Source: an uncultured Propionivibrio sp.
Lineage (GTDB): Bacteria; Pseudomonadota; Gammaproteobacteria; Burkholderiales; Rhodocyclaceae
Direction of reading: 5' to 3'
Length of the DNA: 32,000 nucleotides
Assembly (NCBI GenBank): GCA_964563685.1
Contig: CAZLXL010000003.1
Span: 237,585 to 269,584, forward strand
The notes below the pieces were generated by a model. That model saw only the letters and a program-made list of their open reading frames with translations, was not told the DNA's origin and searched no databases. The translations under genes and the position numbers were made by a program. Numbering within the stretch: position 1 is the first letter of the stretch; each line of letters opens with the position of its first letter. Shown here piece after piece: positions 2,734 through 15,226 of this stretch.

Positions 2734-2752
2734 GCCCCCATTGCTAGGGGGC
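2734..2752. terminator. stem-loop between convergent genes
   Basis: gccccc-attgcta-gggggc lies between the stop at 2650 (+) and the stop at 2761 (-). No clear T-run on either strand. Confidence 0.35.
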
Positions 2753-2760
2753 TTGCCTGC

Positions 2761-3753
2761 TTACGCTGCGGCACGAACCGCTGCCACTAAATCGGCGGCA
2801 GTTGGGTTGTAGTAGCGCATGGCCATCTGAATGGTTTTCCAGCCCATGACTTTCGCCAAGGTGGCAACCGGCATATGCGGCGCGAGACGCGATGCCGCCT
2901 CGTGCCGTAGGTCATGGAAGCGCAGCCCGGTAATGCCGGCGCGCTCACAGGCGCGCCGAAATGCTGCGCTCAACCCGCGTGAGTCGTAAAACTTGGTCAG
3001 GCGGCCTCCATTAATCGGCCTAGGAAGTGCGCGAATAGCGGCTTCTGCTGCTTCGGTAAGCGGCACGATGCGTCGGTCGCCGTTCTTGGTCATGTCCAAC
3101 CTAATGACGCCATGGAAAAGGTCGATTTGCTCCCAGAGCAGCCCGACAATCTCCCCTGCGCGCATGCCAGTTTCCAAAGCTAGGACGATGCAAAAACTGA
3201 GAGTCGCTGCCTTGCTCTCGTCGGCAGCCTGCAATAGCCGGACTTGCTCATCTTCGGACAACCGGCGCTCGCGGTGCTGTCCGGTCTGCGGCTTGCGGAT
3301 GCTGGCGATGGGGTTGTCAATCGGCAGGGACCAGTCCGTGCGGGCAGTGTTGAGCACATGGGAAATGATGACCAACTCACGTTTAACGGTGGCCGGACTG
3401 CATTTCTTCAGGCGTTCATCCCGGTAGTTGGCGAAGTCCAGGCTGCGTAGGCTGGCCAGGGAACGGGCTGCCAAGGGTGTCTTTTGAAGTGCTTTGATAC
3501 GGTACATTTCCGTTTCCCAGCCCCGCTTGTCTTGGGTGACCTCGCGGGCGTAGCGGTCCAGCGCCTCACCGAAAGTGGTGCGCTCGGCTTCCGACCGATC
3601 AACGAACATACCTCGGTGCATCTCTGACTCGATGGTCGCAGCCCAAGCTTCCGCTGCTTTATGGGTCTCGAAAGTCTTTTGCTGGAAGGGGTAGCCCTTG
3701 CGGCGAATCTGGGCTTGAAATTGGTAGGGGCCGCGTTTGATGATGGATGCCAT
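2761..3753 (-). CDS. tyrosine recombinase / phage-type integrase (island B)
   Basis: Catalytic signature: ETGMRAGEI (Arg I), RFHDLRHEAAS (H-x-x-R), GWKTIQMAMRYY (Trp/Tyr). N-terminal arm-type domain MASIIKRGPYQFQAQIRRKG. Lies 137 nt from the orphan tRNA half, in the orientation usual for an integrase next to its att site. Confidence 0.9.
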   Translation of the reverse strand: MASIIKRGPYQFQAQIRRKGYPFQQKTFETHKAAEAWAATIESEMHRGMFVDRSEAERTTFGEALDRYAREVTQDKRGWETEMYRIKALQKTPLAARSLASLRSLDFANYRDERLKKCSPATVKRELVIISHVLNTARTDWSLPIDNPIASIRKPQTGQHRERRLSEDEQVRLLQAADESKAATLSFCIVLALETGMRAGEIVGLLWEQIDLFHGVIRLDMTKNGDRRIVPLTEAAEAAIRALPRPINGGRLTKFYDSRGLSAAFRRACERAGITGLRFHDLRHEAASRLAPHMPVATLAKVMGWKTIQMAMRYYNPTAADLVAAVRAAA

Positions 3754-3883: not shown

Positions 3884-3890
3884 GAATTTA

Positions 3891-3935
3891 TGGCGCGCCC
3901 GAGACGATTCGAACGTCCGACCCCTGCCTTCGGAG
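3891..3935 (-). repeat. orphan 3' half of tRNA-Arg(CCG); att direct repeat (distal junction of island A)
   Basis: tggcgcgcccgagacgattcgaacgtccgacccctgccttcggag is identical over 45/45 nt to 14198-14242. The sequences diverge immediately afterwards (tgctt versus ggcag). Confidence 0.9.
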
Positions 3936-3993
3936 TGCTTAGGACTAATCTACACAAGCAGTATTTTCAAGGCGTTCAAACAATATATCTGCA

Positions 3994-4015
3994 AAGTAGT
4001 ATAGAAGTAGTATAG
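3994..4015. repeat. tandem AAGTAGTATAG x2 (arm-type site candidate, distal arm)
   Basis: The 11-mer sits at 3994-4004 and 4005-4015. The same 11-mer recurs as an inverted pair at 14112-14139 near the other island end. Confidence 0.6.
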
Positions 4016-4098
4016 CGTTAGGGCACGAAACTCAGGCTATGAAACGCCAGATCGCCCCTGTTTACAACACCCACAAATCAATGCTTTTGTCATTATAA

Positions 4099-4117
4099 GT
4101 GTCGTTTTAACCGACAC
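4099..4117 (+). repeat. TGTCG-N7-CGACA element, copy a
   Basis: gTGTCGttttaacCGACAc. It abuts, by 1 nt, the stop codon of the CDS at 4117-4350. Confidence 0.8.
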
Positions 4118-4350
4118 TATATGCTTGCTTGCATCAACGGTTTCGCTGGACGACCACCGCAGTAATCACAAGACGGATCATCACAGCACGCCGCTTCCTG
4201 CCATTCATTACACGATGCGCAGAACAACGCGTCGTAGCGTTCCGAGTAAATCAGCTTCTTGCTGCATTTCGGGCAGCGCTCATCTGTCTCTAAGCGCGGT
4301 ATAGGCTCGCCACCGCTATCGATCAGTGTGTTTTTGCTTGCGTCTTTCAT
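4117..4350 (-). CDS. small Cys-rich zinc-ribbon-like protein (77 aa)
   Basis: CPKC-x17-CASC plus CCDDPSCDYC. ATG 4350 is preceded by a GGGGG Shine-Dalgarno. The track ORF extends to 4386. Confidence 0.5.
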   Translation of the reverse strand: MKDASKNTLIDSGGEPIPRLETDERCPKCSKKLIYSERYDALFCASCNEWQEAACCDDPSCDYCGGRPAKPLMQASI

Positions 4351-4467
4351 CAGCCCCCATGAGCGTCTTGAAACGGGACGCTTCAACGCCGTCGATTATA
4401 TTCGTCACACCAACTTCTGCTCGGTGTATTGCCAAGGCTATTGGCTGGCATTCGTACTAACTTGCAG

Positions 4468-4980
4468 CTATTCGCAATCGCAGCCTTCACGAAGGAAACG
4501 TGAAATACGGTTTTGCAGACTTTCATAGTCTTTAGTTTGACATTCCCAGATGACGAGCACTTTCCACCCCAGCCCCCTCAATTTAGAAATATTTTCCGCG
4601 TCTCTCGCACAATTTCGAGCTAATTTCGGCCCCCAGTAGTCCAAATTTGACTTCGGGGAACGGCCCGCTCTGCATAATGGATCTGAGTGTTGATGCCAGA
4701 AACATCCGTGAACAAAAATTACAGCGCTGAAACGAGGAAAGACTAGATCAGGAACTCCTGGCAAGTCTTTTCGATAAAGGCGGAAGCGAAATCCGAGCGC
4801 GTGAGCAGCGCGCCTAACGAGAAACTCGGGCGCAGTATCCCGAGACCGAATACGCGCCATGTTCTCGCTGCGAGTCATGGGGAGGTGAGTAGCGCGGCGC
4901 TCTATATCGGTCAATTCCACCATCCGTTCGCGCTTTACAATTTCGTGCAAACTATCGACGGACCCGTTTGCTTCAGTCAA
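4468..4980 (-). CDS. vsr: very-short-patch repair endonuclease (Vsr)
   Basis: TRSENMARIRSRDTAPE...PGVPDLVFPRFSAVIFVHGCFWHQH matches the E. coli Vsr core motifs. Position 4980 is a TTG 3 nt after the dcm stop. Alternative ATG starts at 4923 and 4878 would remove a 19-34 aa N-terminal extension. Confidence 0.85.
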   Translation of the reverse strand: MTEANGSVDSLHEIVKRERMVELTDIERRATHLPMTRSENMARIRSRDTAPEFLVRRAAHALGFRFRLYRKDLPGVPDLVFPRFSAVIFVHGCFWHQHSDPLCRAGRSPKSNLDYWGPKLARNCARDAENISKLRGLGWKVLVIWECQTKDYESLQNRISRFLREGCDCE

Positions 4981-4983
4981 TAG

Positions 4984-5970
4984 CTATGCTGTCACAGCTG
5001 ATAAGGGCGGTGCTTCGGTCTTGATTGCCTCTGTCGCAGGTTCGGATAGGAGACTTGCTCGTACTCGCTCTCCCAGCCACTCGGCTACCTGCGGGGTTAC
5101 AGAATTGCCCACTGCGTGATATCGAAGAGAGTCTACGTCGTCTTCAGATCCCTTGGCTGGGATTCGTGTCCAATCGAGAGGAAAACCTTGAATCTCTTCC
5201 ACTTCATTAGGCATAAAACGACGGACTCTTCCATCGGGATACCAAACGTAATTGCGGCTCCAGTCTGTTCCTGTATGCCTCGCTGATTCGGCGTATATAC
5301 AGTGAGCTCTTGCTTTTACGAACCCTGTGCTAGGATTTCCAACGACTGTCTGAAAGAGGGAATCAGATTTCTTCCCATTCTGTCCACGCGACGCAGAATG
5401 CCTCGAGCTGCATTCGGGCTCAAAAAGTATGTCTGCGGCACGTCTGGGGTCCTGATGTACCCCGACAATGTAGACTCGACGTCGTGACTGTGGGATTCCG
5501 AAGTGTTGACTGTTAAGCACACGCCACGCCACGCCATACCCGAGTTGGTCCAGCGTCTTGAGTACGATGGCGAAGTCTCGTCCTCCGTGGCTAGTAAGAA
5601 GCCCGTGGACGTTTTCGAGGATAAGGACTCTTGGAAGACACTCTCCAGCAAGTCGAGCAATCTCAAAAAAGAGTCCTGACTTGGCTCCTCGAAGTCCGTC
5701 ACGCCTGCCCATTCTTGCAAGCGAGAGGTCTTGGCAGGGGAATCCTGCGGTCCAAACATCGGCAGCTGGAATTTCAGAACCTTTGACACTACAGATATCC
5801 TTTGCTTTGGGTAATTTCGGCCAATGATGCGCGAGCACTCGATAGCAAAAATCTTTTACTTCGCATTGAAAAACACTCTTGATCCCAGCTCGTTCAAATC
5901 CGAGATCGAAACCACCAATACCGCTAAAGAACGAGGCATGATGTAGCTTTTTCCTTGAGGTCGCTGACAT
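4984..5970 (-). CDS. dcm: DNA (cytosine-5)-methyltransferase
   Basis: Motif I FFSGIGGFDLG, motif IV GFPCQDLS, motif VI ENV, motif VIII QSRRRVYIVG, motif X GNSV. ATG is at 5970; the track uses GTG 5976. Confidence 0.9.
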   Translation of the reverse strand: MSATSRKKLHHASFFSGIGGFDLGFERAGIKSVFQCEVKDFCYRVLAHHWPKLPKAKDICSVKGSEIPAADVWTAGFPCQDLSLARMGRRDGLRGAKSGLFFEIARLAGECLPRVLILENVHGLLTSHGGRDFAIVLKTLDQLGYGVAWRVLNSQHFGIPQSRRRVYIVGVHQDPRRAADILFEPECSSRHSASRGQNGKKSDSLFQTVVGNPSTGFVKARAHCIYAESARHTGTDWSRNYVWYPDGRVRRFMPNEVEEIQGFPLDWTRIPAKGSEDDVDSLRYHAVGNSVTPQVAEWLGERVRASLLSEPATEAIKTEAPPLSAVTA

Positions 5971-6895
5971 GACCACCTTTCACATTACTTGGCGCCCGAG
6001 CGGCGGACGCGGAGAATTCGAATACAGCCCCGTTGATTCAGCATTTGAAGACAAACCAATTGCAATTTGTGTTGGCATCAAAGGTGCGGATTGTATGATA
6101 TCCACCGATGGCTTTCTTGCAAGAAACGGCGGCAAAAGACGCCTTCGGCGGACAGCACCCAACGACCGCACGCACCTGTCCATCCCAAATCTGGTATCCG
6201 CGATGCTAGCGGTTCCCAAACCTACGCGCGACCGAGACAATATTACTGCCCCCAGCTTGACCGAAGGGAAATGGGCCATCGGAACAATCGAACTGTCGAT
6301 TGAATCGCAGCCAACAGACACAATTTTACGCGTTCGTCCCTTGTCGCTGAAACCACGGCACTTTTTCTCTCCAATCGACGTGCAAAACAGATTGGAAACT
6401 TTGGAATCCGAAGCTAAACAGGGAGACACGCTGGGTAGCGAAGTTGATGCGCACCTGACTTTACTAGCTTCTGGTACCAATACGGTTGCACTTGAGAAGT
6501 CTGCGCTAACAGTCTTCAGCGCATTCGAGGCAAAGAACGGCGACCTTCCACTAATGGCAAGCCCCGAAGAGGTCGAACAAGCTCGTCTGTTCGGTGAGGC
6601 TGAAGCGGATTCTCTGCCAGCGCTTAGCATGACGGAGGGAAAGAAGAAACTGGTCGCGCACTTGCTGCGAGAGCGGAAAAAAGCATTGGTAAAACAGAAA
6701 AAAGACAATTTTTCTGCGAAACACGGTCGCCTGTTCTGCGAATGCTGCAAGATGAGTCCCTTGGACATGTATGGCTCCGACTTGAGCGGGCTAATCGAAG
6801 CACACCACCGCATACCGCTCAATGAATGTTCCGATGATGAGGTACGTGTCACATCTCTCGATGATCTCGTACTCCTTTGCAGGAACTGCCACTGA
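5969..6895 (+). CDS. HNH-motif nuclease, probable restriction endonuclease partner of the methyltransferase
   Basis: C-terminal CECC...EAHHRIPLNE...LLCRNCH is an HNH / beta-beta-alpha-Me signature. The N-terminal ~250 aa is not recognised. GAGG Shine-Dalgarno lies 8 nt upstream. Head-to-head with dcm. Confidence 0.7.
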   Translation: MTTFHITWRPSGGRGEFEYSPVDSAFEDKPIAICVGIKGADCMISTDGFLARNGGKRRLRRTAPNDRTHLSIPNLVSAMLAVPKPTRDRDNITAPSLTEGKWAIGTIELSIESQPTDTILRVRPLSLKPRHFFSPIDVQNRLETLESEAKQGDTLGSEVDAHLTLLASGTNTVALEKSALTVFSAFEAKNGDLPLMASPEEVEQARLFGEAEADSLPALSMTEGKKKLVAHLLRERKKALVKQKKDNFSAKHGRLFCECCKMSPLDMYGSDLSGLIEAHHRIPLNECSDDEVRVTSLDDLVLLCRNCH

Positions 6896-7013
6896 GCCAT
6901 CCATAGAATAGATCCTCTGCCATCGTTGGAAGAGCTCAAAGCACATCTGCGGATGGTTTTACGACCCGTATAAGAAAACAATGTTCAACAGGCCTCAGGT
7001 TTGACCACTGGGG

Positions 7014-7454
7014 TTATTTCGCAAATCCAGCTTTTACCGCCCCCGCGACCGCCTCAATCTGCGCATCCAGTTCGCCGCTCTCAACGGCTTGCTTCAAAAC
7101 TTCCAGCGTCGCGACCAGTTCCTTCTCGCTTGCCAGTTCCACCGCTGTTTTTCCCTTGGCGATCTCAACGACCTTCGCCCCGTAGCGCAGCGACAGGCAC
7201 AGCTTGCCGCTGCCGCTCGTAAACCACCATTCCTTGACACGCTTGGGCACAGACACGGTTTTGTTCAACCCCGTCTCGGCGTCCTTGACCGTCCGCAGCC
7301 GCGTCGGCGAAAACGCCTTCCCTTCCAGCGTCGATTTCGCCAGTTCAATTTGTTCGTAGATGCGCTTGGCGACATTGTTGCGCCGCTGAACAACAGGCGA
7401 CAGATGAACGGGGCGCTTGGCGCTAACCAGCTTCAGATTGGCAAGTGCGGTCAT
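7014..7454 (-). CDS. hypothetical protein (146 aa), conserved-looking island protein of unknown function
   Basis: AAGGAG Shine-Dalgarno 8 nt upstream of ATG 7454. Protein-like composition (MTALANLKLVSAKRPVHLSPVVQRRNN...). I believe relatives exist in other proteobacterial islands but cannot verify this. Confidence 0.65.
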   Translation of the reverse strand: MTALANLKLVSAKRPVHLSPVVQRRNNVAKRIYEQIELAKSTLEGKAFSPTRLRTVKDAETGLNKTVSVPKRVKEWWFTSGSGKLCLSLRYGAKVVEIAKGKTAVELASEKELVATLEVLKQAVESGELDAQIEAVAGAVKAGFAK

Positions 7455-7468
7455 TTCGTCTTCTCCTT

Positions 7469-7493
7469 ACAGTTATGTATGTGCCATAACTGT
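7469..7493. promoter_or_regulatory. 9-bp inverted repeat in the divergent promoter region (operator candidate)
   Basis: acagttatg-N7-cataactgt lies between the divergent starts at 7454 (-) and 7573 (+). Confidence 0.4.
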
Positions 7494-7572
7494 ATGGTCT
7501 GAACCCAGCCAGAGCAACCGAAGATTTCGGTCTGTTTTTCTTTGGTTCTGTCATCGGCGCATAAATACGTTT

Positions 7573-8085
7573 ATGACCCACGACGACTTTAAATTGAGAC
7601 AGGCGCACATTGACTGGATGGAGCAATACGCAGGCGCACTCACGCACGCCGCGACACTGACGCTCAAGCCCTACCGCGCTGTCCTGACCGCACGCGGCGA
7701 AATCCGCGAGCCGATCACGCCGCTGGCTGCATCACAGGATTTCGGTTTCTTCATTCAACGCCTCAATGCCTCGTTGTTCGGTCATGCTGCCAAGCGCTAC
7801 GGCAAATCGATTGCGATCCTGCCCACGCTTGAAGGCTTGCAACGCGGCAAACTGCTCCACTACCACTGCGCACTCGGGCAATTCCCGACGCAGCTCTGTG
7901 AAAAAGCCATTGACGCAAAAATCCGCGAAGCGTGGCAGAAGACTCGATTTGGCAACGAGCAGGTTGATGTTCGGCGCATGGCGACGGCAGGCTGGCTGTC
8001 GTACATGGGCAAGGAAATACGCAGTAACAACGCAGACGCACTGGATATTGCCAATGTGCGCCTGCCCTCAGCATCGCTGGTCTAA
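7573..8085 (+). CDS. small HUH-motif Rep/relaxase-like protein (170 aa)
   Basis: Three motifs occur in canonical order: ATLTLKP (motif 1, FLTLT-like), LLHYHCAL (HUH), WLSYMGKE (YxxK). The assignment rests on motif pattern only. Confidence 0.4.
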   Translation: MTHDDFKLRQAHIDWMEQYAGALTHAATLTLKPYRAVLTARGEIREPITPLAASQDFGFFIQRLNASLFGHAAKRYGKSIAILPTLEGLQRGKLLHYHCALGQFPTQLCEKAIDAKIREAWQKTRFGNEQVDVRRMATAGWLSYMGKEIRSNNADALDIANVRLPSASLV

Positions 8086-8506
8086 GCGCCCTTTGCTGTG
8101 ATTGGAGATGAAGCGGACAGCAGTTCGCTTTAATTGCCTGAACATGGCTATTTTTCCTAAAAGAACAACATCACAGAAATAACAAGTTGAGAAAAGCTCA
8201 GAAGAACAAAGACAGGAAACAGAAATACCCCACGCAGCAAAACAACCGCAGGCACGCAGGAACAATCGACAAGGGACGATCCGCAGCGTGCGCAGGTTAG
8301 CAGTGCTGGGGCTGGTGCAAAACAGAGCACAGAGCGCACGCGCAAATTCGCGTAAATACAAAAACAAAGGAAATAGCGAAATGCTTTGGTTCATTACTAA
8401 CTTACTGAATAAATTGAATAACACGCCTGACAAAAATCGGTTGTGCACCACAAATCAAAGACCATACACTATGACTAATGAATCATTTGATTTGGAGAGG
8501 AAAAAG
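8086..8506 (+). promoter_or_regulatory. 420-nt non-coding region: candidate replication origin or long leader/ncRNA
   Basis: No credible ORF. The plus strand is strongly T-poor over about 8158-8366. Five CGCAG pentamers lie in 8233-8295. GCGTGCGC/GCGCACGC inverted repeat sits at 8286-8293 / 8334-8341. An AT-rich tract spans 8381-8430. A 9-bp inverted repeat lies at 8451-8459 / 8486-8494. Confidence 0.35.
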
Positions 8507-9073
8507 ATGGGACAGGCAAAAACACTGACAGATCAGGAACTGAAGCGCGTACTCAATTTCATTTCCTGCCAGAAGCACGCGCAGCGCAATCGGGCGATGC
8601 TGCTGATTACCCACTATTCGGGAATGCGCGTTGGCGAAGTTGCCGCGCTCAGGATCGGCGATGTCTGGTCAGCCGAAAGCGGCGTGAAACCCGAAGTGCG
8701 TTTGCTGCCAGAACAGACGAAGGGCAAGCACCCTCGCGCCGTGTTCATTCCACAGAAGCTGCGCAGGGAATTGGCGACATACTTGGCAACCATCGACCGC
8801 ACCGATGTTTCCAAGCCGCTCTTCTCCACCCAAAAGCGCGATCACTTCACTGCCAATACACTGTGCCAACATTTTCACTGGCTCTACAGACAGGCGGGGA
8901 TTGCTGGCGCAAGCAGCCACAGCGGACGACGGACATTTATTACAGCACTGGCAAACAAGGGCGTCGGCGTGCGCGTGTTGATGGCGCTGGCTGGGCATCG
9001 CAACATCTCAACAACGCAAGCCTACATCGACGTAAACGACGAGATGAAACGGGCTGCGGTCGAGTTGATTTAA
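8507..9073 (+). CDS. short tyrosine recombinase (188 aa, catalytic domain only; FimB/FimE-sized)
   Basis: SGMRVGEV (Arg I), SHSGRRTF (H-x-x-R), GHRNISTTQAYI (His/Tyr). GGAGAGG Shine-Dalgarno lies 6 nt before ATG 8507. Alternative in-frame starts are at 8471 and 8381. Confidence 0.8.
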   Translation: MGQAKTLTDQELKRVLNFISCQKHAQRNRAMLLITHYSGMRVGEVAALRIGDVWSAESGVKPEVRLLPEQTKGKHPRAVFIPQKLRRELATYLATIDRTDVSKPLFSTQKRDHFTANTLCQHFHWLYRQAGIAGASSHSGRRTFITALANKGVGVRVLMALAGHRNISTTQAYIDVNDEMKRAAVELI

Positions 9074-9092
9074 CTGTCGGGTAAAACGACAG
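9074..9092 (-). repeat. TGTCG-N7-CGACA element, copy b
   Basis: The plus strand reads ctgtcgggtaaaacgacag and the reverse strand reads cTGTCGttttaccCGACAg. It fills exactly the 19-nt gap between the convergent stops at 9073 and 9093. Confidence 0.8.
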
Positions 9093-10010
9093 TCAGTTGT
9101 TACCTTCGTCCCAATCTTCGCCATAAATCGGCTGATCGGCGGGTCGCAAGCTCAAGTCTAATGACCACCACGCTTCCTCAAGCGCTTTGTGTCTTGCCAG
9201 ATGTCTCGGTGAATAATAGCCTTCTGTGTTCGGCTGATACATATAAAAGACGGGAAAGCGACCGTAGGTAACACACGAAATCAGCTGGTTGGCACGCCGT
9301 AAATAGCGACTGACCGTCGCCCGCATTCGATTCTGTCTTCGCTTCAGCTCATCGTAATCATCGGACAGCAGCGCATTTGCTGGACTCAGGTTCAGCATTT
9401 TTCCCAATTGAAATAGGTCGCAACGCTCTTGTTCGGCACTTGGATTCAAGCCTGCTGCACGCTTTGGCTTGAGGATCAATTCGCGGTGTGCGCTCCATAC
9501 CTGATGCGTTTTCTCCAAAACGTGGAGTCTGTAAGCAACGGGGTTAATCGGAAAACTGGAATTGCTTGTTTCGAGGACGTTGCGCGGACGCGCGAAATCC
9601 ACAGTTGCGAGCATTTTGCGTATCTGCTTCATCACAGTTTCCTTACGCAAAATCAGCGGCACTTCCAGTAACGCGCGATCCTTGCTTGGCTCACGAAGAT
9701 CCGACAGATCGGGTTTGATCATCTTGACCCTCGGTGGATCAATTTGCTCCTCAAAGACATGGCACCCCCTGCGACGCCACCATTCGTCAAACGACACACT
9801 GTAGATGTCGCCAAACGCATCCCAAACCCGCAAGAGCGTGGGATCAAACGTCCGTCCATAAGTCCTCGATAACAGCCAATAGGTCTTGCTGAGGCGCAAG
9901 AACTCAAACCACCACCGCCGCACGCTGATTCTCGCATCACGCAGTTCATCTTCTTCGTTCTTGTATCTGAAGCGCGGGAAGCCCTTTTGTGGTCGTCGTT
10001 GTACCAGCAT
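9093..10010 (-). CDS. hypothetical protein (305 aa) with Trp-rich N-terminal motif RRWWFEFLRLS
   Basis: GGGAG Shine-Dalgarno before ATG 10010. Protein-like composition. No family recognised with confidence. Confidence 0.65.
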   Translation of the reverse strand: MLVQRRPQKGFPRFRYKNEEDELRDARISVRRWWFEFLRLSKTYWLLSRTYGRTFDPTLLRVWDAFGDIYSVSFDEWWRRRGCHVFEEQIDPPRVKMIKPDLSDLREPSKDRALLEVPLILRKETVMKQIRKMLATVDFARPRNVLETSNSSFPINPVAYRLHVLEKTHQVWSAHRELILKPKRAAGLNPSAEQERCDLFQLGKMLNLSPANALLSDDYDELKRRQNRMRATVSRYLRRANQLISCVTYGRFPVFYMYQPNTEGYYSPRHLARHKALEEAWWSLDLSLRPADQPIYGEDWDEGNN

Positions 10011-10027
10011 TTCTCCCTCTTTTTCGG

Positions 10028-10074
10028 CAGATTAACAGTGTGGTGCTCAATTGTGACATACGACGGTTAATCTG
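10028..10074. promoter_or_regulatory. 9-bp inverted repeat in the divergent promoter region
   Basis: cagattaac (10028-10036) and gttaatctg (10066-10074) lie between the divergent starts at 10010 (-) and 10159 (+). Confidence 0.3.
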
Positions 10075-10158
10075 GAAAATGAACTCCATCGACAGCGCAA
10101 CACACCACGGCACCTTCGCCTCCACTGCGCGATCGATCTTTCAAAAAGGAGAAACACC

Positions 10159-10974
10159 ATGCAAGACCAAGTCAACGTCACCAAAGCCGCCATCGCCACC
10201 ATTACTGTCGGGCAAAACGACACTGTGAACGTTGCTGCTGAGAAAGCAGTCACGCCCGATTTTGCGGCGAACTACAAGCGTATTCAGCAACTTGTTGTTG
10301 AACGTGAAGTATGGGAAAACACGGTCCTGCGCACGTGCAACGATCAGCTTTATGCGCTGCTTGCGAAGTGCTACGCGCTTTACTTTGAAATGGTCGGCAG
10401 TTCCGAAGCAGCGAAAGCAATGCGCAGCGCACTCGAAAGCGTGATCAACACCAAGGGCTATCGCTTTACCAAGGGCACGCACACGCTCACCAAAATCGTC
10501 AAATGCGTGTTTGGCGTCGATCGTCGTCGCGTGTCTGCCTATAGTCTCGTGCTGCGCGAAGCTTTGTCGCGCAATCTCAAAGATGCTGAAATCGCCAGCT
10601 TTATCGCGGGAAAAGGCGGCGTCGAAGAGATTCGTCGTAGCAAGAGCGCAACTGCTATCACCCCAAAGCAAAAAGCAGAGCTGGGCAAGCAAGCTGTTAG
10701 CGCCACGCATCTCGGCGTCATCAGCAGCAGCAATATCGCCGAAAAAATCGATATTGCAAATGTAGGCAATGATTTGGTCGCCATCGTCACGCAGCAAGCC
10801 GACGGCAGTCTGATCGTGCGTGCGCTGATTAACAGTCAAAGCGTCCTAAACGCTGCGCTCGCGTGCGCTTACACCGAAAACAAAGGTGTCGTGCAAACCG
10901 ACATCAACAACGCCAAGCCTGCAAACGATGACCAGTTTCGCGCTGATCTTATCGCCAACGCAGCAAGCAACTAA
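10159..10974 (+). CDS. hypothetical protein (271 aa), first gene of a co-directional cassette
   Basis: AAAGGAGAAA Shine-Dalgarno. Protein-like composition (…WENTVLRTCNDQLYALLAKCYALY…GGVEEIRRSK…). Function unknown. Confidence 0.7.
   Translation: MQDQVNVTKAAIATITVGQNDTVNVAAEKAVTPDFAANYKRIQQLVVEREVWENTVLRTCNDQLYALLAKCYALYFEMVGSSEAAKAMRSALESVINTKGYRFTKGTHTLTKIVKCVFGVDRRRVSAYSLVLREALSRNLKDAEIASFIAGKGGVEEIRRSKSATAITPKQKAELGKQAVSATHLGVISSSNIAEKIDIANVGNDLVAIVTQQADGSLIVRALINSQSVLNAALACAYTENKGVVQTDINNAKPANDDQFRADLIANAASN
10205..10223 (-). repeat. TGTCG-N7-CGACA element, copy d (inside a CDS)
   Basis: The plus strand reads ctgtcgggcaaaacgacac and the reverse strand reads gTGTCGttttgccCGACAg. It spans codons 16-22 (TVGQNDT) of the gene starting at 10159. 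Confidence 0.75.
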
Positions 10975-10996
10975 TCGCACTACACGGGCGCGGGCA

Positions 10997-11013
10997 TGTC
11001 GCCCGCCCCGACA
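10997..11013. repeat. TGTCG-N7-CGACA element, copy e (GC-rich spacer)
   Basis: TGTCGcccgcccCGACA lies in the 65-nt gap before the AAA+ gene. It shares the right flank cccgacactc with copy c. Confidence 0.7.
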
Positions 11014-11039
11014 CTCACTCTAAACAAAGGAGAAATGCA

Positions 11040-11696
11040 ATGTTCTACACGCCTTCAAATATCAACGACATCGTCTATCACTCAGTGGTAGAGCGGAAGC
11101 TGATCAACGACATAGCAGCAGGAACGATTCAATTTCCTGCATGCGGCAAAAACGGCATCTTGCTCTACGGCATCTACGGCACAGGCAAGACAACGTTGGC
11201 AAGGCTGTTGCCAGAAGCGATTGAGCGCGGCAAGGGCGGGGGCAGTGTTTACTACGACTTTTTTCCCTGCGAGCAAGGGCAGAACGGGGTGCAAGTGATC
11301 ACCAAAATTCGCAACACTGCGGAAAAGGTTTCAATTTTCAACTACAGCGGATATCACTACTTTGTGCTGGACGAGGTGGACAACTTGACCGATGCCGCGC
11401 TGGCGTCGCTGAAAACAGCGATGGGCATTCCGCAGACGATCTTCATCATGACCACCAATCACATCAGCGAGATTGATGCTGGTGTTCAAAATCGCTGCGT
11501 GCGCATCAATTTCAACGCGGCGCAAGCGAGCGAATGGTTGCCGTTTGCAAGACGCGTGCTCAACGATTGCGACGCAGGCGAGATCAGCGACGACAAGCTC
11601 ATCCCCGTCATTGATAGCTGCAAAGGCTCTGCGCGAGAAATCGCGGAAGCAATGCAGAGAATCGCAGCGCATCAAACCGTGACCGTATCTCTTTGA
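11040..11696 (+). CDS. AAA+ ATPase, clamp-loader (RFC / DnaX / gp44)-like, 218 aa
   Basis: Walker A GIYGTGKTT, Walker B YFVLDEVD, sensor-1 IFIMTTN, and QNRCVRINF resembling the clamp-loader SRC motif. AAAGGAGAAA Shine-Dalgarno. Confidence 0.75.
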   Translation: MFYTPSNINDIVYHSVVERKLINDIAAGTIQFPACGKNGILLYGIYGTGKTTLARLLPEAIERGKGGGSVYYDFFPCEQGQNGVQVITKIRNTAEKVSIFNYSGYHYFVLDEVDNLTDAALASLKTAMGIPQTIFIMTTNHISEIDAGVQNRCVRINFNAAQASEWLPFARRVLNDCDAGEISDDKLIPVIDSCKGSAREIAEAMQRIAAHQTVTVSL

Positions 11697-11726
11697 TTTC
11701 AACACCACAAACGAAAGGAAATAACA

Positions 11727-12209
11727 ATGATTACGCTGAAGATTGTTGAGAAGATGGCTGAAAAAATGAAGTGGGAGCAACGGTTTTTCACGGCTTACAA
11801 AGGAGGGCTACTACCAATATCTGACGTGATTTTTAGTAGTTTATGCAAGTTCCTCGTTGCTGTTGAAGACGGTAAAGAACTTGGATTTATGCGTCTGAGT
11901 GATTATTCACGCAAAGGCGTGGGATATCTGAGCGAGGAGTTTTGGAGCATATCCGATGCTTACGTGAAGCCCCGTTACAGAGGCAAAGGTGTTCTCCGTG
12001 AAATGATTTCTCAAGCCGTACGCGATCACAGCGTTAAGATGCTTTTCATCGAAACAAGTCGGCTTGCAAAAAACTACGACTATTACTCAACGCTCGGATT
12101 CTCCGATGTCAAACTGGTAGAGGAAGGCAAAATGGCATACGTGCGCCATGTCGGCACGCATAAAGTTCGATTGGCTAGCAATGATGCGCAATACAAGATT
12201 TGCGCATAG
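11727..12209 (+). CDS. GNAT-family N-acetyltransferase-like protein (160 aa)
   Basis: AYVKPRYRGKGVLREMISQAV matches the GNAT motif A (R-x-x-G-x-G) acetyl-CoA pocket. AT-richer than its neighbours. AAAGGAAA Shine-Dalgarno. Confidence 0.6.
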   Translation: MITLKIVEKMAEKMKWEQRFFTAYKGGLLPISDVIFSSLCKFLVAVEDGKELGFMRLSDYSRKGVGYLSEEFWSISDAYVKPRYRGKGVLREMISQAVRDHSVKMLFIETSRLAKNYDYYSTLGFSDVKLVEEGKMAYVRHVGTHKVRLASNDAQYKICA

Positions 12210-12219
12210 ACAGAAATAA

Positions 12220-12238
12220 CTGTCGTTTTTCCCGACAC
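12220..12238 (+). repeat. TGTCG-N7-CGACA element, copy c
   Basis: cTGTCGtttttccCGACAc, 10 nt after the GNAT stop codon. Confidence 0.8.
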
Positions 12239-12355
12239 TCTCCAATGCTCGCCTTACAAGCGGGCATTTTGCTATGTGCGCCACTTGCCGTCCCGAATTT
12301 CGTCGGATTCTCCCAATTTCCCGCCGATAAATACAAGAAACAGGGAGAAATCACC

Positions 12356-12634
12356 ATGCGTTTCGCTGAATTTGCGCCACCTGCCAGCGCAGCACAAAAC
12401 AGGCAACCACGACAGCAGCAGAAGCGGCAGCCTGCCGCATTGGAGCCGACCGATGTAGCACGGGGAAGAATGCGGCGCGAACTGGCGAAGAAGATTGCCC
12501 AGTCACAAGCCCAAGTCCAGCCCACGGAAGATGATCTTGCCATCGCCTTTATGCGTGCTTGCCAAGCGCAGAATGCCGTCGATGACGCCGCGCAGCAGAC
12601 TGGCGATTACCGCCCCAAACGCTTCAACGGCTAA
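12356..12634 (+). CDS. small basic/Gln-rich hypothetical protein (92 aa)
   Basis: GGGAGAAA Shine-Dalgarno before ATG 12356. Its stop overlaps the convergent integrase stop (CTAA at 12631-12634). No HTH recognised. Confidence 0.5.
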   Translation: MRFAEFAPPASAAQNRQPRQQQKRQPAALEPTDVARGRMRRELAKKIAQSQAQVQPTEDDLAIAFMRACQAQNAVDDAAQQTGDYRPKRFNG

Positions 12635-13992
12635 TCGGCGTCCTGCTGCTTTCCGCTGGTTTTGGCTTTCCTCTTTCTACGCGACTGAAGCATTCCCACG
12701 CCGTCCTCGCCTTTCAACTGCGCCGCGTAGAATCGGTCGATCATTTCAGGCGAGGTCCGCGCATTACGCGCCAGCGTGATCACATCCATCTTCTCGCCAT
12801 ACAGCAGGCGATACATGATGCAGGTATGGCGCAGCGAATACATGGTCCTGTCTTCGCCTTTCGCTGCCTTGCTCAAGTTCGTGCTCCACATCAGCACATC
12901 AAACTGGCGCTGGAGTTGTTTGAGCGCGTAATCCCGTTTTTCGTATTGCGGCAGGAAAACATAATCGTCAGGCGCTACGCCGAGCCCGCGAGCGCGATTG
13001 AGTGCAGTGAGGCGCTCATACACATCCACCGCTTTGGGCATCGTTACGATGGGCGCGTCGTGCTTCTTGCTGAGCGGCAAGCTCAAGCGCAAGTACACGT
13101 GGTCGTTGCGCAGGATTTCGACATGCTTGTGTTGCAGGTGCTTGATGTCCGTCGGGCGAATGAAGCTGTTGCTCATGAACACGATCAGTTCGACCAAGTC
13201 CGCCGTGATTTCAATGCTGCGTATCTTTCTGCCGTTCCCTTTGTGACTGCCAGCAGGAAAGTATTGCGCCAGTTCTTCTCCGCCTTTCTTGTTCTTCAGT
13301 TTCACCGCGTCAAAACGCTTGCCAATCAGCGCACGCGCTCGGCTCCATAACAGCCGATACTCGCGGGTCGTGAAGTAGCCTCGGGGATTGTCGGGTGTCA
13401 CGACACTTGGAAAGTGCGGGATCATGCTGATCAGTTGCCGCTTGTAGGCATGGTTCAGCACCTTGCGCACGAGCTTCATATAGCTGGCGATTGTCGATGG
13501 GCTTAGCTTCGGCTGTATATGCGACAACTCGCTGAGATAGCGCTCCAGCAAGTCATAGTTGATATCGGCGGCGTCACGCTCGCCGAAGAACGGCAGGATG
13601 CTTTTCTGGAGCCTATAGTCGGTGATCTCGTAGGTCTGCTTGGTTATTTCACCGCGTGCCACCTGCGCCTTCATCGATGCCAGCATGGCAACCGCACACA
13701 TGTCGAAACGCGATTTGGTGGTGACTGACAGACCTTGCGCACGCCGCAGATTAATGTCGTCGTAGAACTGCTTGGCGAATCGGAACGCCTCGTTCTTGTT
13801 CTCGGTCTTGGTGCTGCGTCGGACGATCTTGCCGTCGGTGTAATAGCGCACCCACCAATAGCTGCTCGCTTCCAGTTTGTAGATGATCAGTTTCTTAGGA
13901 TAGCCAGGCACAGGCGCTAAAGACCCCGCCAGCGGCACGGTTCGATGTTTCTTCTGCAAAGCAGCGGTCTGGATCGTTTTCTCTTCTTGCAT
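12631..13992 (-). CDS. tyrosine recombinase / integrase of island A (453 aa)
   Basis: FIRPTDI (Arg I), SLRHTCI (H-x-x-R), IDRFYAAQ (Tyr). Arm-type N-terminus KLIIYKLEASSYWWVRYYTDGK. Start taken as ATG 13992; the track ORF extends to 14055. Lies about 200 nt from the tRNA. Confidence 0.9.
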   Translation of the reverse strand: MQEEKTIQTAALQKKHRTVPLAGSLAPVPGYPKKLIIYKLEASSYWWVRYYTDGKIVRRSTKTENKNEAFRFAKQFYDDINLRRAQGLSVTTKSRFDMCAVAMLASMKAQVARGEITKQTYEITDYRLQKSILPFFGERDAADINYDLLERYLSELSHIQPKLSPSTIASYMKLVRKVLNHAYKRQLISMIPHFPSVVTPDNPRGYFTTREYRLLWSRARALIGKRFDAVKLKNKKGGEELAQYFPAGSHKGNGRKIRSIEITADLVELIVFMSNSFIRPTDIKHLQHKHVEILRNDHVYLRLSLPLSKKHDAPIVTMPKAVDVYERLTALNRARGLGVAPDDYVFLPQYEKRDYALKQLQRQFDVLMWSTNLSKAAKGEDRTMYSLRHTCIMYRLLYGEKMDVITLARNARTSPEMIDRFYAAQLKGEDGVGMLQSRRKRKAKTSGKQQDAD

Positions 13993-14047
13993 AGAGCACC
14001 TATGTCTCAGCGCACTATATGCTCTACACCGCTCAAATACAAGACTT

Positions 14048-14081
14048 ACAGCCATTCAAGCAGACAGCAACACAGCCATTC
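14048..14081. repeat. direct repeat ACAGCCATTC x2 in the integrase-proximal arm
   Basis: Perfect 10-mers at 14048-14057 and 14072-14081, upstream of the integrase start. Confidence 0.45.
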
Positions 14082-14111
14082 TGTTTGCCTAAACTGGCGA
14101 AAATATGGCAG

Positions 14112-14139
14112 AAGTAGTATAGATTACACTATACTACTT
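14112..14139. repeat. inverted pair of AAGTAGTATAG (arm-type site candidate, tRNA-proximal arm)
   Basis: aagtagtatag (14112-14122), attaca, ctatactactt (14129-14139). The same 11-mer occurs as the tandem pair at 3994-4015. Confidence 0.6.
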
Positions 14140-14143
14140 TTAT

Positions 14144-14171
14144 GCAAAATAAAACCCGCACAAAGCGGGTT
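14144..14171 (-). terminator. rho-independent terminator downstream of tRNA-Arg (island-encoded)
   Basis: The minus strand reads aacccgc-tttgt-gcgggtt followed by ttatttt. It lies 27 nt past the tRNA 3' end, inside island A. Confidence 0.6.
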
Positions 14172-14197
14172 AAATACTTGATATTACTGAGAATTCT

Positions 14198-14274
14198 TGG
14201 CGCGCCCGAGACGATTCGAACGTCCGACCCCTGCCTTCGGAGGGCAGTACTCTATCCAGCTGAGCTACGGGCGC
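14198..14274 (-). tRNA. tRNA-Arg (anticodon CCG), 77 nt with encoded CCA
   Basis: The reverse complement reads GCGCCCGTAGCTCAGCTGGATAGAGTACTGCCCTCCGAAGGCAGGGGTCGGACGTTCGAATCGTCTCGGGCGCGCCA. The cloverleaf is foldable by eye, with anticodon loop CUCCGAA. Very similar to E. coli tRNA-Arg(CCG). Confidence 0.95.
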
Positions 14275-14341
14275 GTTGAGGGTGGCAAGCATAGCGGTTT
14301 TGCCCGCCGGAGTCCATCATGCGGTGCTGTCGTGTGGTGAT

Positions 14342-15226
14342 TTACTGCTTCGACCGCCGGCTGCGTGCAGTCTCCAGATGCCGGCAAAGTTGCTCGGCGC
14401 CGTCGAGCAGACGGGGGGTGTGGCGCTGAATCAGCTCCGGCGGCACGAAAAAGAGATTGTTGCGCGCGACGGCCTGGATAGTCGGCCAGCGCTGCCAGTC
14501 ATCGAGCCAGTCCGGCCTGGCTTCGCCCATGCCGCTGGCGACAATGGCTTCAGGGGACGCGGCTATCACGGCTTCGACAGTGACCACCGGCGCCAGCGAT
14601 TCGAGCGTTCCGAAAACATTTTCGCCGCCGCACAGCCGGATCACGCTGGTGATGATCTGTTTGCTGCCGATAGTCGACAGCGGTTGTTTCCAGATCTGGT
14701 AGAAGGTCCGGACGACAGGCTTCTGCGCGTAACGTTTCTCCAGGGCGGCAAGGCGTTTGCGGAAAACCTTCGCCGTTGCCCGGGCTTCCTTGTCGGTTCC
14801 CGCCAGACGCCCGATGCGTTCGATTTCGCTGGCGACGTCCTCGATGCGATTGGGCTGCGAGATGTAGATCGGAAATCCGAACCCGCGCAGTTTTTCGACA
14901 TGCGCCGCTGCATTGCCGCTGAGCCAGGCAATGATCAGATCGGGTTTGAGTGCGGCGATGGCTTCAAGGTCGAGGCGTGAATAGCCGCCGACCCGCGTGA
15001 CTTTCTTTGCCGCCTCGGGGAAGTCGCTGTATTCGACGGTGCCCACGAGTTTGTCGCCGGCGCCCGCGGCGAAGAGGGTTTCCACCAGATGCGGCGCCAG
15101 TGTGACGATGCGGCGGGCCGGCTGCTCCAGGCGGACGCGTGCGCCGGTATCGTCGATCACGCTGACTTCCGCCGCAGTCAGCGCGGCTGGGAATAACAAG
15201 GTCAGGGCCATCAGGATTCTGCTCAT
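14342..15226 (-). CDS. btuF: periplasmic cobalamin-binding protein (BtuF-like ABC substrate-binding protein)
   Basis: Signal peptide MSRILMALTLLFPAALTA. RIVTLAPHLVETLFAAGAGDKLVG...LKPDLIIAW is typical of class III binding proteins / BtuF. Sits in the cob gene context. ATGA overlap with the upstream gene. Confidence 0.75.
   Translation of the reverse strand: MSRILMALTLLFPAALTAAEVSVIDDTGARVRLEQPARRIVTLAPHLVETLFAAGAGDKLVGTVEYSDFPEAAKKVTRVGGYSRLDLEAIAALKPDLIIAWLSGNAAAHVEKLRGFGFPIYISQPNRIEDVASEIERIGRLAGTDKEARATAKVFRKRLAALEKRYAQKPVVRTFYQIWKQPLSTIGSKQIITSVIRLCGGENVFGTLESLAPVVTVEAVIAASPEAIVASGMGEARPDWLDDWQRWPTIQAVARNNLFFVPPELIQRHTPRLLDGAEQLCRHLETARSRRSKQ

Follow-up and report, generated by a model that had tools for sequence, protein, structure and literature searches.

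The 32-kb window studied here (the whole stretch of 32,000 nucleotides, from an uncultured Propionivibrio sp.) contains a 10.3-kb island, 3939-14190, which is integrated at tRNA-Arg(CCG) and carries repeated copies of a short gapped palindrome, TGTCG-N7-CGACA. We propose that these palindromes are double-stranded core sites of the minimal tyrosine recombinase encoded by the island, and that they delimit exchangeable modules. The chance of this proposal being right is, in our judgment, about even. In a wider sense, such chromosomal islands might possess a self-contained form of module shuffling, in which a ~190-aa recombinase, possibly together with a DUF6641 protein, acts on island-specific 17-19-bp palindromes, and modules are inverted, lost and exchanged across Betaproteobacteria. 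We put this forward tentatively, at a little under an even chance. The site family is widespread and apparently undescribed.

Seven exact copies of the palindrome were found in the window. The original prediction had listed five, all of which are present with the sequences it described, and had overlooked one copy in the 3′ part of the p271 gene (10887-10903) and one in the gene of the large integrase (13389-13405). It had also estimated that 0.03 copies are expected by chance, and dinucleotide-preserving shuffles of the window (n = 100) likewise gave 0.03; seven or more copies occurred in none of the 100 shuffles. All seven copies lie inside the island and none in the remaining 21.7 kb of the window, as had been claimed. 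When one mismatch was permitted, only two more hits appeared, outside the island and at chance level. Widening the spacer to 3-12 nt revealed no further copies of the TGTCG/CGACA palindrome in the window. The seven sites are listed below; p305 and p271 are two island proteins without a Pfam family.

Site 1, 4100-4116, plus orientation: TGTCG-TTTTAAC-CGACA, abutting the stop of a Cys-rich 89-aa gene, about 160 nt inside the left island end
Site 2, 9075-9091, minus orientation: TGTCG-TTTTACC-CGACA, taking up the 19 nt (9074-9092) that separate the small-recombinase stop from the convergent stop of p305
Site 3, 10206-10222, minus orientation: TGTCG-TTTTGCC-CGACA, embedded in codons 16-22 of p271
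Site 4, 10887-10903, minus orientation: TGTCG-GTTTGCA-CGACA, within the 3′ part of p271
Site 5, 10997-11013, no orientation: TGTCG-CCCGCCC-CGACA, between p271 and the AAA+ gene (gap 10975-11039), with an atypical GC spacer
Site 6, 12221-12237, plus orientation: TGTCG-TTTTTCC-CGACA, 11 nt past the GNAT stop (12209)
Site 7, 13389-13405, minus orientation: TGTCG-TGACACC-CGACA, inside the large integrase gene

Each of the seven copies comprises perfect 5-bp inverted arms and a 7-nt spacer. The asymmetric spacer TTTT-N-(A/C)-C, which had been reported for four copies, is indeed common to the four at 4100 (+), 9075 (-), 10206 (-) and 12221 (+). The placements described earlier also held (abutting the stop at 4117, filling 9074-9092, in the 10975-11039 gap, in codons 16-22 of the gene starting at 10159), as did that of the copy after the 12209 stop, except that its distance is 11 nt rather than 10 nt. 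The statement that the copies are mostly at gene ends was true of four of the seven, which are intergenic or at gene ends, but not of the three within coding sequence. The order of site orientations along the window (+, -, -, -, ?, +) showed no strict alternation. Sites 6 and 2 together form a 24-nt inverted repeat. The left arm of site 5 is the loop of a stronger GC-rich hairpin and is thereby sequestered. This hairpin (10985-11010, GGGCGCGGGC-ATGTC-GCCCGCCCC) lies just 3′ of the p271 stop, is part of a -24 kcal/mol fold that overlaps site 5, and may be the real terminator of p271.

In the proposed mechanism, a site would have two short inverted arms for binding, each made of a GTC core and its neighboring bases, on either side of an A/T-rich crossover spacer of 7 bp, and the asymmetry of the spacer would give the site its direction. 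The reader would be the island's own catalytic-domain-only recombinase (8381-9073), the gene of which almost always ends beside a copy. The copies would divide the island into modules, namely a recombinase/DUF6641 block, p305, p271-AAA+(-GNAT) and cargo. Recombination between copies, within one island or between co-resident islands or excised circles, would then lead to inversion, deletion and exchange of modules. This would account for the mosaic structure of related islands, with its junctions at the sites, and for the cargo between inverted site pairs. We favored a tyrosine recombinase because of the short inverted arms, the 7-nt A/T-rich spacer and the co-occurring protein. The core sites of tyrosine recombinases have overlap regions of 6-8 bp, and a 7-bp A/T-rich overlap is typical. 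The short arms would also fit an enzyme without an N-terminal core-binding domain. We infer that the small recombinase, as the candidate enzyme, binds and cleaves the sites and that strand exchange takes place there.

Site family in related islands

Related loci, more than 100 in total, were collected from homologues of p305, from a genome scan with a p305 alignment and from a metagenome scan with the small recombinase. Most of them belong to Betaproteobacteria of freshwater and soil (Polynucleobacter, Limnohabitans, Zwartia, Paraburkholderia, Burkholderia and Sulfuriferula). Their common core comprised DUF6641 (-), recombinase (+), p305 (-), p271 (+) and AAA+ (+), with a large integrase at one end. 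The search of related islands suggested in the original prediction was productive: many of them carried three to eight copies of the same or a co-varied palindrome. A scan of viral contigs for the oriented motif gave isolated single hits at chance level and no clusters. The claim of a dedicated, directional island element is strongly supported, as the same or a co-varied palindrome occupies the same positions in homologous islands and is not a feature of unrelated DNA.

The layout of inverted arms and spacer was seen in more than 100 copies among the relatives. Their arms were 4-10 bp long, and the spacer was usually 7 nt and A/T-rich, with an effective length of 5, 8 or 9 nt in some groups. 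The arm types included TGTCG, CGTCC, GTTG, AGTCG and CGTCG. The forms found in individual loci (numbered with L) were as follows.

TGTCG-N7-CGACA: L034, L040, L051, L056, L083 (5 copies), L085 (8 copies), L087 and L088
TGTCGTG-N5-CACGACA: the Polynucleobacter loci, L143 and L131
TCAAGCGTCC-CGTTACT-GGACGCTTGA: L043 (7 copies)
ACGTCC-N7-GGACGT: L063
GCGTCG-N7-CGACGC: L054
AAGTCG-TTTAAAA-CGACTT: L059
GTTG-TTTWAAA-CAAC: L122, L126 and L129 (6-7 copies)
TGTCC-N8-GGACA: the L114 group
GTCCGATARTCGGAC: Paraburkholderia L071-74
GCGTCC-N7-GGACGC: a further arm type among the related islands

The original prediction had opposed a stem that covaries, as in a structure, to a sequence that is fixed, as in a protein site. 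Each was found at its own level: the arms differed between islands by symmetric compensatory changes, and one arm sequence was kept throughout an island or module. Compensatory pairs were present at three arm positions, a count that is partly circular, the inner five pairs having served to pick the sites. Arm sequence and symmetry are both constrained. This fits a site that is read by a protein, or a uniformity that arises through recombination. Selection for a hairpin alone is disfavored, because all copies within an island stay identical in arm sequence.

The same data bear on a role at the RNA level, one of those raised in the original prediction. The copies would then be bidirectional terminators lacking a U-tract, attenuators, or hairpins that stabilize or process 3′ ends and insulate modules, and the uniformity within an island would stem from duplication of module ends. 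The compensatory changes between islands do keep the pairing, and four of the seven copies in the window and most of those in relatives stand just past stop codons, often between convergent genes. However, the stems have 5 bp with a 7-nt loop and reach -3 to -6 kcal/mol as DNA, and mostly no T-run follows them. On the T-run the original prediction was essentially right, except that a lenient terminator scan passed two of the 14 strand readings, those of 12221 and 10887 on the minus strand. The orientation of the copies relative to transcription was inconsistent. A conserved copy lies inside the p271 coding region, others lie in the 3′ part of p271 and in the integrase gene, and one arm at 10997 is sequestered in the alternative hairpin of -24 kcal/mol. 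Structure alone would leave the shared arm sequence and the A/T-rich 7-nt spacer within an island unexplained, and no Rfam family was found at the sites. We thus consider an RNA-level role improbable.

The positions of the sites were conserved as well. According to a hand tally, a site lies at most 60 nt past the stop of the small recombinase in ~33 related loci. Sites also recurred behind the stops of AAA+ or GNAT and of DUF6641; L083 and L085 have a site after GNAT, as site 6 in the window. Site 4 is conserved in L060, and a similar copy is present in L085. In 13 of 16 p271 homologues, an embedded site was found 48-126 nt from the ATG. Of the genes for which the original prediction had proposed a test of co-occurrence, homologues of the 7573-8085 gene showed no correlation with the sites, and sites also occurred without the p305 module.

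We compared the embedded p271 palindrome in the window (10159-10260) and in L034, L044-48, L051, L054-56, L059 and L060. The N-terminus of p271 is of low complexity and poorly conserved except at the palindrome, which is always translated as V-x-x-N-D(T/S). The embedded palindrome is a DNA-level constraint on the p271 coding sequence. At one p271 position, which is otherwise colinear and 81% identical between L044 and L045, the 5-nt loop is flipped (TTTGA at 9757 in L044, TCAAA at 9749 in L045) between unchanged arms, a finding that points to conversion between inverted copies or to hairpin-templated switching.

Sites and module boundaries

Four Polynucleobacter islands have backbones that are 79-91% identical, and the limits of the block that they have in common fall 0-6 nt from two sites. 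A further common block resumes 2-4 nt before a third site, in an intergenic region of ~190 nt. Unrelated cargo was found in the same inverted site pair: L044 has an autotransporter lipase there, L045 an ars operon, and L046 a MerR regulator together with a P-type metal ATPase. At this cargo position, L048 has a single site. In L044, two inverted sites also enclose an additional integrase-like cassette of 1.1 kb, at a place where L045 has one site. Inversely oriented bounding sites were seen for four Polynucleobacter cargo cassettes; backbone sites, as noted for the window, do not strictly alternate. Of the 223 ends of high-scoring segment pairs (HSPs), 31 lay at most 15 nt from a site, as compared with 1.2% of the DNA.

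The most informative comparison was that with L157, which is situated at the same chromosomal locus as the island of the window. The two are 92% identical in the large integrase, 94.5% in the recombinase, 94% in a 170-aa protein, 88% in DUF6641 and 76% in the Cys-rich protein. By contrast, the p305/p271/AAA+ block of L157 is inverted and 24-30% identical to that of the window. The homology ends at 9071, which is the recombinase stop and the edge of site 2. The swapped-in block carries sites of the GCGTCC type and the rest of L157 sites of the TGTCG type; copies with hybrid arms are present too. Site 1 plus 35 nt of flank is kept in L157. Site 7 is present there with one spacer change, and its functional status is uncertain.

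Within 13382-13437 and 14129-14416, L157 also has a full Cys-rich gene with its site and a second site that is preceded by a 35-nt remnant of the 3′ end of that gene. Two extra genes lie between the site of the full gene and that of the remnant. This is the duplication pattern expected from insertion at a site.

Mosaicism was visible in other relatives. The recombinase, p271 and AAA+ proteins of L083 and L085 are 58-72% identical to those of the window (44-72% including GNAT), and their p305 is at most 33% identical; the p305 of L034 is 66% identical. Across the loci, one gene-order class is related to another through inversion of either the p305/p271/AAA+ or the DUF6641 block.

Such arrangements could also come about with no dedicated protein, if the sites were hotspots of palindrome-stimulated illegitimate recombination or template switching, or the terminal inverted repeats of small cassettes that resemble miniature inverted-repeat transposable elements and have spread through this family of islands. 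It is true that inverted copies flank cargo, that the loop at the p271 site of L044 and L045 was flipped without rearrangement, and that hairpin-templated repair could maintain perfect arm symmetry. However, the sites belong to the conserved backbone and not to the cargo: the HSPs of the backbone extend over them, and one copy remains in the empty state. They are kept at the same positions across proteins that are 30-70% identical, implying selection. In addition, 5-bp arms are too short for efficient events driven by cruciforms or hairpins, and the strict association with one recombinase family would be left unexplained. There is, in our view, little probability that the sites act without a dedicated protein.

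Closely spaced site pairs, 11-70 nt apart, were observed in four loci. The pair is inverted in L034 (1685-1744) and direct in L056 (7945-8046), L059 (8193-8280) and L122 (10003-10045). Such pairs resemble module slots that are empty, or traces left by the loss of a cassette.

Candidate proteins and other island genes

All loci in which multi-copy sites were found carry the close small-recombinase family. No repeated palindrome was present in the p305/p271/AAA+ loci without the close recombinase and DUF6641 (L036-39 and L058), nor in L047, L050 and L053, which have only a distant recombinase (25-31%). Sites occurred without the p305 module in L071-74, L087, L088 and L069. DUF6641 and the recombinase are always together and therefore cannot be separated as candidate partners of the sites. 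The small recombinase matches the Pfam family Phage_integrase (E = 1e-27). It keeps R, K, HxxR, H and the Tyr nucleophile in an alignment with the Xer structures 4a8e and 5hxy. Its family has at least 7737 clusters, typically of 188-230 aa.

Instead of the recombinase, another dimeric island protein (such as DUF6641, p305 or p271) might bind the sites as boundary, roadblock, silencing or KorB-style operator elements, without strand exchange. Mosaic junctions would then fall there merely because the sites mark gene ends. In line with this, the association of DUF6641 with the sites is as tight as that of the recombinase, the arm type follows the modules in L157 and L085 and goes along with the identity of p305 and p271, and sites are absent from many islands that have the recombinase. 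A roadblock or autoregulation would be a fitting role for the conserved site near the start of p271, which is adjacent to the promoter region of the divergent p305 and p271 genes. However, no helix-turn-helix, ParB or KorB-type domain was detectable in DUF6641, p305 or p271, and the structure models of DUF6641 and p305 match no known DNA-binding fold. The loci named above, in which p305, p271 and AAA+ occur without recombinase or DUF6641 and have no sites, or in which sites occur without the p305 module, also speak against it, and most copies are at 3′ ends rather than at promoters. Furthermore, the junctions of three different cargoes with the backbone all fall a few nt from one site in the ~190-nt intergenic region, a precision that is hard to explain without site-directed events. 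We regard such a binding role as rather unlikely. The original prediction had suggested dispersed sites for an island DNA-binding protein, which was right in spirit; its KorB/ParB logic was not, as no ParB, KorB or ParA-type domain was found by Pfam, NCBIfam, PHROGs or PADLOC among the proteins of the larger island open reading frames (ORFs) that were scanned.

The original prediction had also suggested hairpin substrates for an HUH-motif protein. In such a scheme, the copies would be single-stranded hairpins for the Rep-like protein at 7573-8085, according to the logic of repetitive extragenic palindromes (REP/RAYT) or of a rolling-circle origin. This 170-aa protein has a weak match to Pfam REP_ORF2-G2P, and its gene stands between DUF6641 and the recombinase in part of the family; the trio is kept in L155, L157 and L158. 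The match is nevertheless below the Pfam cut-off (18.2 bits versus 27.8; E = 0.003), and the presence of the protein does not correlate with that of the sites. L075, L076 and L155 have a homologue yet no sites, and ~24 of 29 site-bearing islands have no tblastn homologue, L157 and L158 being exceptions with one. The copies occur in both orientations, are confined within the window to the island and lie in coding sequence in three cases, with neither a dispersal of the genome-wide type nor a single nick-site hairpin. They also have very weak stems and no REP-like GTAG head. We therefore hold a role as HUH substrates to be highly improbable.

Several observations weigh against recombinase core sites and have to be set beside the evidence above. 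About one third of the small-recombinase islands have no recognizable multi-copy palindrome, including the closest relatives L068, L075 and L076 (88-92% identity). When arm type was related to protein identity, the area under the curve was 0.70 for the recombinase, 0.66 for DUF6641, 0.85 for p305 and 0.86 for p271, a test that is confounded by unequal evolutionary rates (p305 and p271 diverge faster) and by physical linkage. In L157, a single recombinase, 94.5% identical to that of the window, occurs alongside two arm types; either its reading is limited to the GTC...GAC core common to both, or the sites have another reader as well. The four canonical spacers of the window are not the same but differ mutually at 1-2 positions, and many tyrosine recombinases would be hindered in exchange by such differences. 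Mosaic junctions in some other island groups were away from sites, and all near-identical contig pairs were colinear, with no inversion or deletion variants. Finally, junctions at gene ends coincide with sites partly by geometry, because the intergenic gaps are very short.

The limits and genes of the island are given below. Its G+C content is 50-53%, as against 58-67% in the flanking chromosome. Apart from the tRNA, the island DNA had no match in phage and plasmid collections.

Left attachment repeat, 3884-3938, no strand: copy of the 3′ half of tRNA-Arg; a 55-nt direct repeat, 95% identical to 14191-14245
Right attachment repeat, 14191-14245, no strand: inside tRNA-Arg(CCG), 14198-14274 (minus strand)
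Cargo block, 4117-6895, no strand: the Cys-rich 89-aa gene, then (4468-6895) Vsr, a Dcm-type C5-methyltransferase and a putative HNH nuclease
Cys-rich 89-aa gene, 4117-4386, minus strand: left end of the cargo block
DUF6641 protein, 7014-7454, minus strand: 146 aa, always near the small recombinase
170-aa protein, 7573-8085, plus strand: matches inovirus Rep ORF2/G2P below threshold; encoded between DUF6641 and the recombinase
Small tyrosine recombinase, 8381-9073, plus strand: 230 aa from the ATG at 8381, 200 aa from the ATG at 8471; catalytic domain only
p305, 9093-10010, minus strand: no Pfam family; module bounded by sites 2 and 3
p271/AAA+/GNAT module, 10159-12209, plus strand: bounded by sites 3 and 6
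p271, 10159-10974, plus strand: no Pfam family
Clamp-loader-like AAA+ ATPase, 11040-11696, plus strand: from domain scans
GNAT, 11727-12209, plus strand: from domain scans
Large tyrosine integrase, 12631-14055, minus strand: adjoins the tRNA and is assigned the integration at tRNA-Arg

The p305 family comprises 64 clusters, none of them annotated and none with a Pfam model, and has a conserved RWWWEFLRLSK-YW motif. Its AlphaFold model is confident and mostly helical (predicted local distance difference test, pLDDT, 81; predicted template modeling score, pTM, 0.75) and had no match in the PDB at E ≤ 0.001; judging from this model, p305 may be a new fold. The AlphaFold2 model of DUF6641 (pLDDT 66) has an alpha/beta fold without a fold match in the PDB. 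We considered DUF6641 as a trans-acting core-binding domain similar to MpsB, a role that this unmatched model neither supports nor contradicts. No relatives of p305 or DUF6641 were found in viral contigs. PADLOC gave nothing beyond a generic AAA+ for the conserved module and hence no membership in a defense system.

In the cargo block, two ORFs overlap on opposite strands. That at 5969-6895 (+, 308 aa) has a weak match to HNH/type IV restriction enzymes, and that at 5980-6981 (-, 333 aa) has none. The former, which adjoins Dcm and Vsr, is the likelier gene. The Dcm, Vsr and HNH genes suggest a restriction-modification or methyl-directed restriction cassette.

Some features were noted near the ends of the island. 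A second tyrosine integrase (330 aa, 2761-3753, minus strand) is the immediate left neighbor of the partial tRNA repeat (3884-3938), and for this reason two islands seem to stand in tandem at tRNA-Arg. The left one has ~49-58% G+C and runs off the window. An 18-nt inverted repeat (4001-4018/14126-14143, 89% complementary, ATAGAAGTAGTATAGCGT / ACACTATACTACTTTTAT) is located ~60-70 nt inside each end of the island and may serve the large integrase, or an excision factor, as a pair of arm-type binding sites. A small ORF at 12364-12639 (+, ~91 aa, Q/R-rich) adjoins the 3′ end of the large integrase gene and is conserved in L157 at 2736-3011. It may encode an excision or regulatory factor.

Significance and comparison with known systems

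Gene modules bounded by recombinase sites are of a known kind. In the searchable literature we found no description of DUF6641, of this island type and arrangement, or of this use of the ~188-aa recombinase family. If the palindromes are recombinase core sites, they would represent a third cassette logic beside integrons and Xer/dif modules, with a site specificity that co-evolves island by island, and the dif-module type of organization would extend beyond Acinetobacter plasmids and host Xer enzymes. They would also offer a mechanistic handle on mosaicism and cargo trade in the small non-conjugative islands of Polynucleobacter, Limnohabitans, Paraburkholderia and other abundant Betaproteobacteria of freshwater and soil. 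The cargo seen in these islands includes arsenic and metal resistance, restriction-modification, toxin-antitoxin systems and porins. The ~188-aa family (at least 7737 clusters) would then be flagged as having very short, programmable-looking sites, an attractive minimal recombinase/site pair for genome engineering. The sites are a simple sequence signature with which module boundaries in such islands can be annotated.

The sites resemble those of integrons in being recombinase-associated punctuation at gene 3′ ends, with exchangeable cargo and palindromes that vary in sequence and keep their symmetry. In contrast, attC sites are imperfect hairpins of 57-141 nt with R''/L''-L'/R' boxes that recombine as single strands, whereas the sites in the window are perfect palindromes of 17 bp. 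Integron cassettes are co-oriented behind Pc, whereas the modules here have promoters, multi-gene operons and both orientations. The small recombinase, of ~200 aa, lacks the IntI-specific insertion and reaches 56.7 bits with the integron-integrase models (cut-off 265).

As in shufflons (Rci/sfx of IncI plasmids) and in the FimB/FimE systems, the gene of a tyrosine recombinase adjoins its sites, which are several, short, with a 7-bp spacer and in both orientations, and blocks are inverted between related islands. FimB and FimE are also ~200 aa long and without an N-terminal domain. However, the sites studied here bound whole modules and cargo, and not a promoter or alternative C-terminal gene segments. 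The NCBIfam invertase model NF007370 scores the small recombinase at 38.6 bits, against a cut-off of 221. Unlike in shufflons, no phase-variable arrangement was seen among near-identical contigs.

MpsA/MpsB of SGI1 and TcpM, atypical relaxases that act at an origin of transfer (oriT) with inverted repeats (PMC6414798), share with our case a second protein of the tyrosine-recombinase fold beside the integrase, and adjoining short inverted repeats, in SGI1 likewise on an integrative, non-conjugative island. By analogy, the small recombinase may have a role in mobilization like that of MpsA (PMC6414798), which would leave the dispersed copies at module borders unexplained: the oriT is a single 125-bp locus, whereas the islands have three to eight dispersed copies at module boundaries. 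Moreover, no core-binding-domain partner like MpsB was identified here, the model of DUF6641 having an alpha/beta fold without a match.

The closest documented analogue is the pdif/dif modules of Acinetobacter, which are shuffled on Rep_3 plasmids in dependence on XerC/XerD (PMC13141974, PMC6449649, PMC9947245). The dif modules have inversely oriented Xer sites, need near-identical spacers, and are exchanged singly through a cointegrate (PMC13141974). In both cases, a replicon has many short sites of recombinase type that separate its genes into discrete modules, and the backbone is divided in this way too. Inversely oriented sites flank cargo (resistance and toxin-antitoxin genes in dif modules, four Polynucleobacter cassettes among the islands), and the spacers are nearly identical among copies. 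In both, related elements also have a backbone in common and differ by whole modules with junctions at sites, which among the islands was seen in several independent comparisons. The island sites are nevertheless not a member of that family. A pdif site is 28 bp long and has a 6-bp spacer between an XerC arm and a different XerD arm (PMC13141974), whereas the island sites have 17-19 bp, symmetric arms of 4-10 bp and a 7-nt spacer, and their arm sequence is island-specific and without similarity to dif. The candidate enzyme is self-encoded, single and catalytic-domain-only, in place of the host XerC/XerD. Finally, pdif sites reside on Rep_3/OrfX plasmids, whereas the sites described here are carried, in an orientation that does not strictly alternate, by tRNA-integrated chromosomal islands of Betaproteobacteria.

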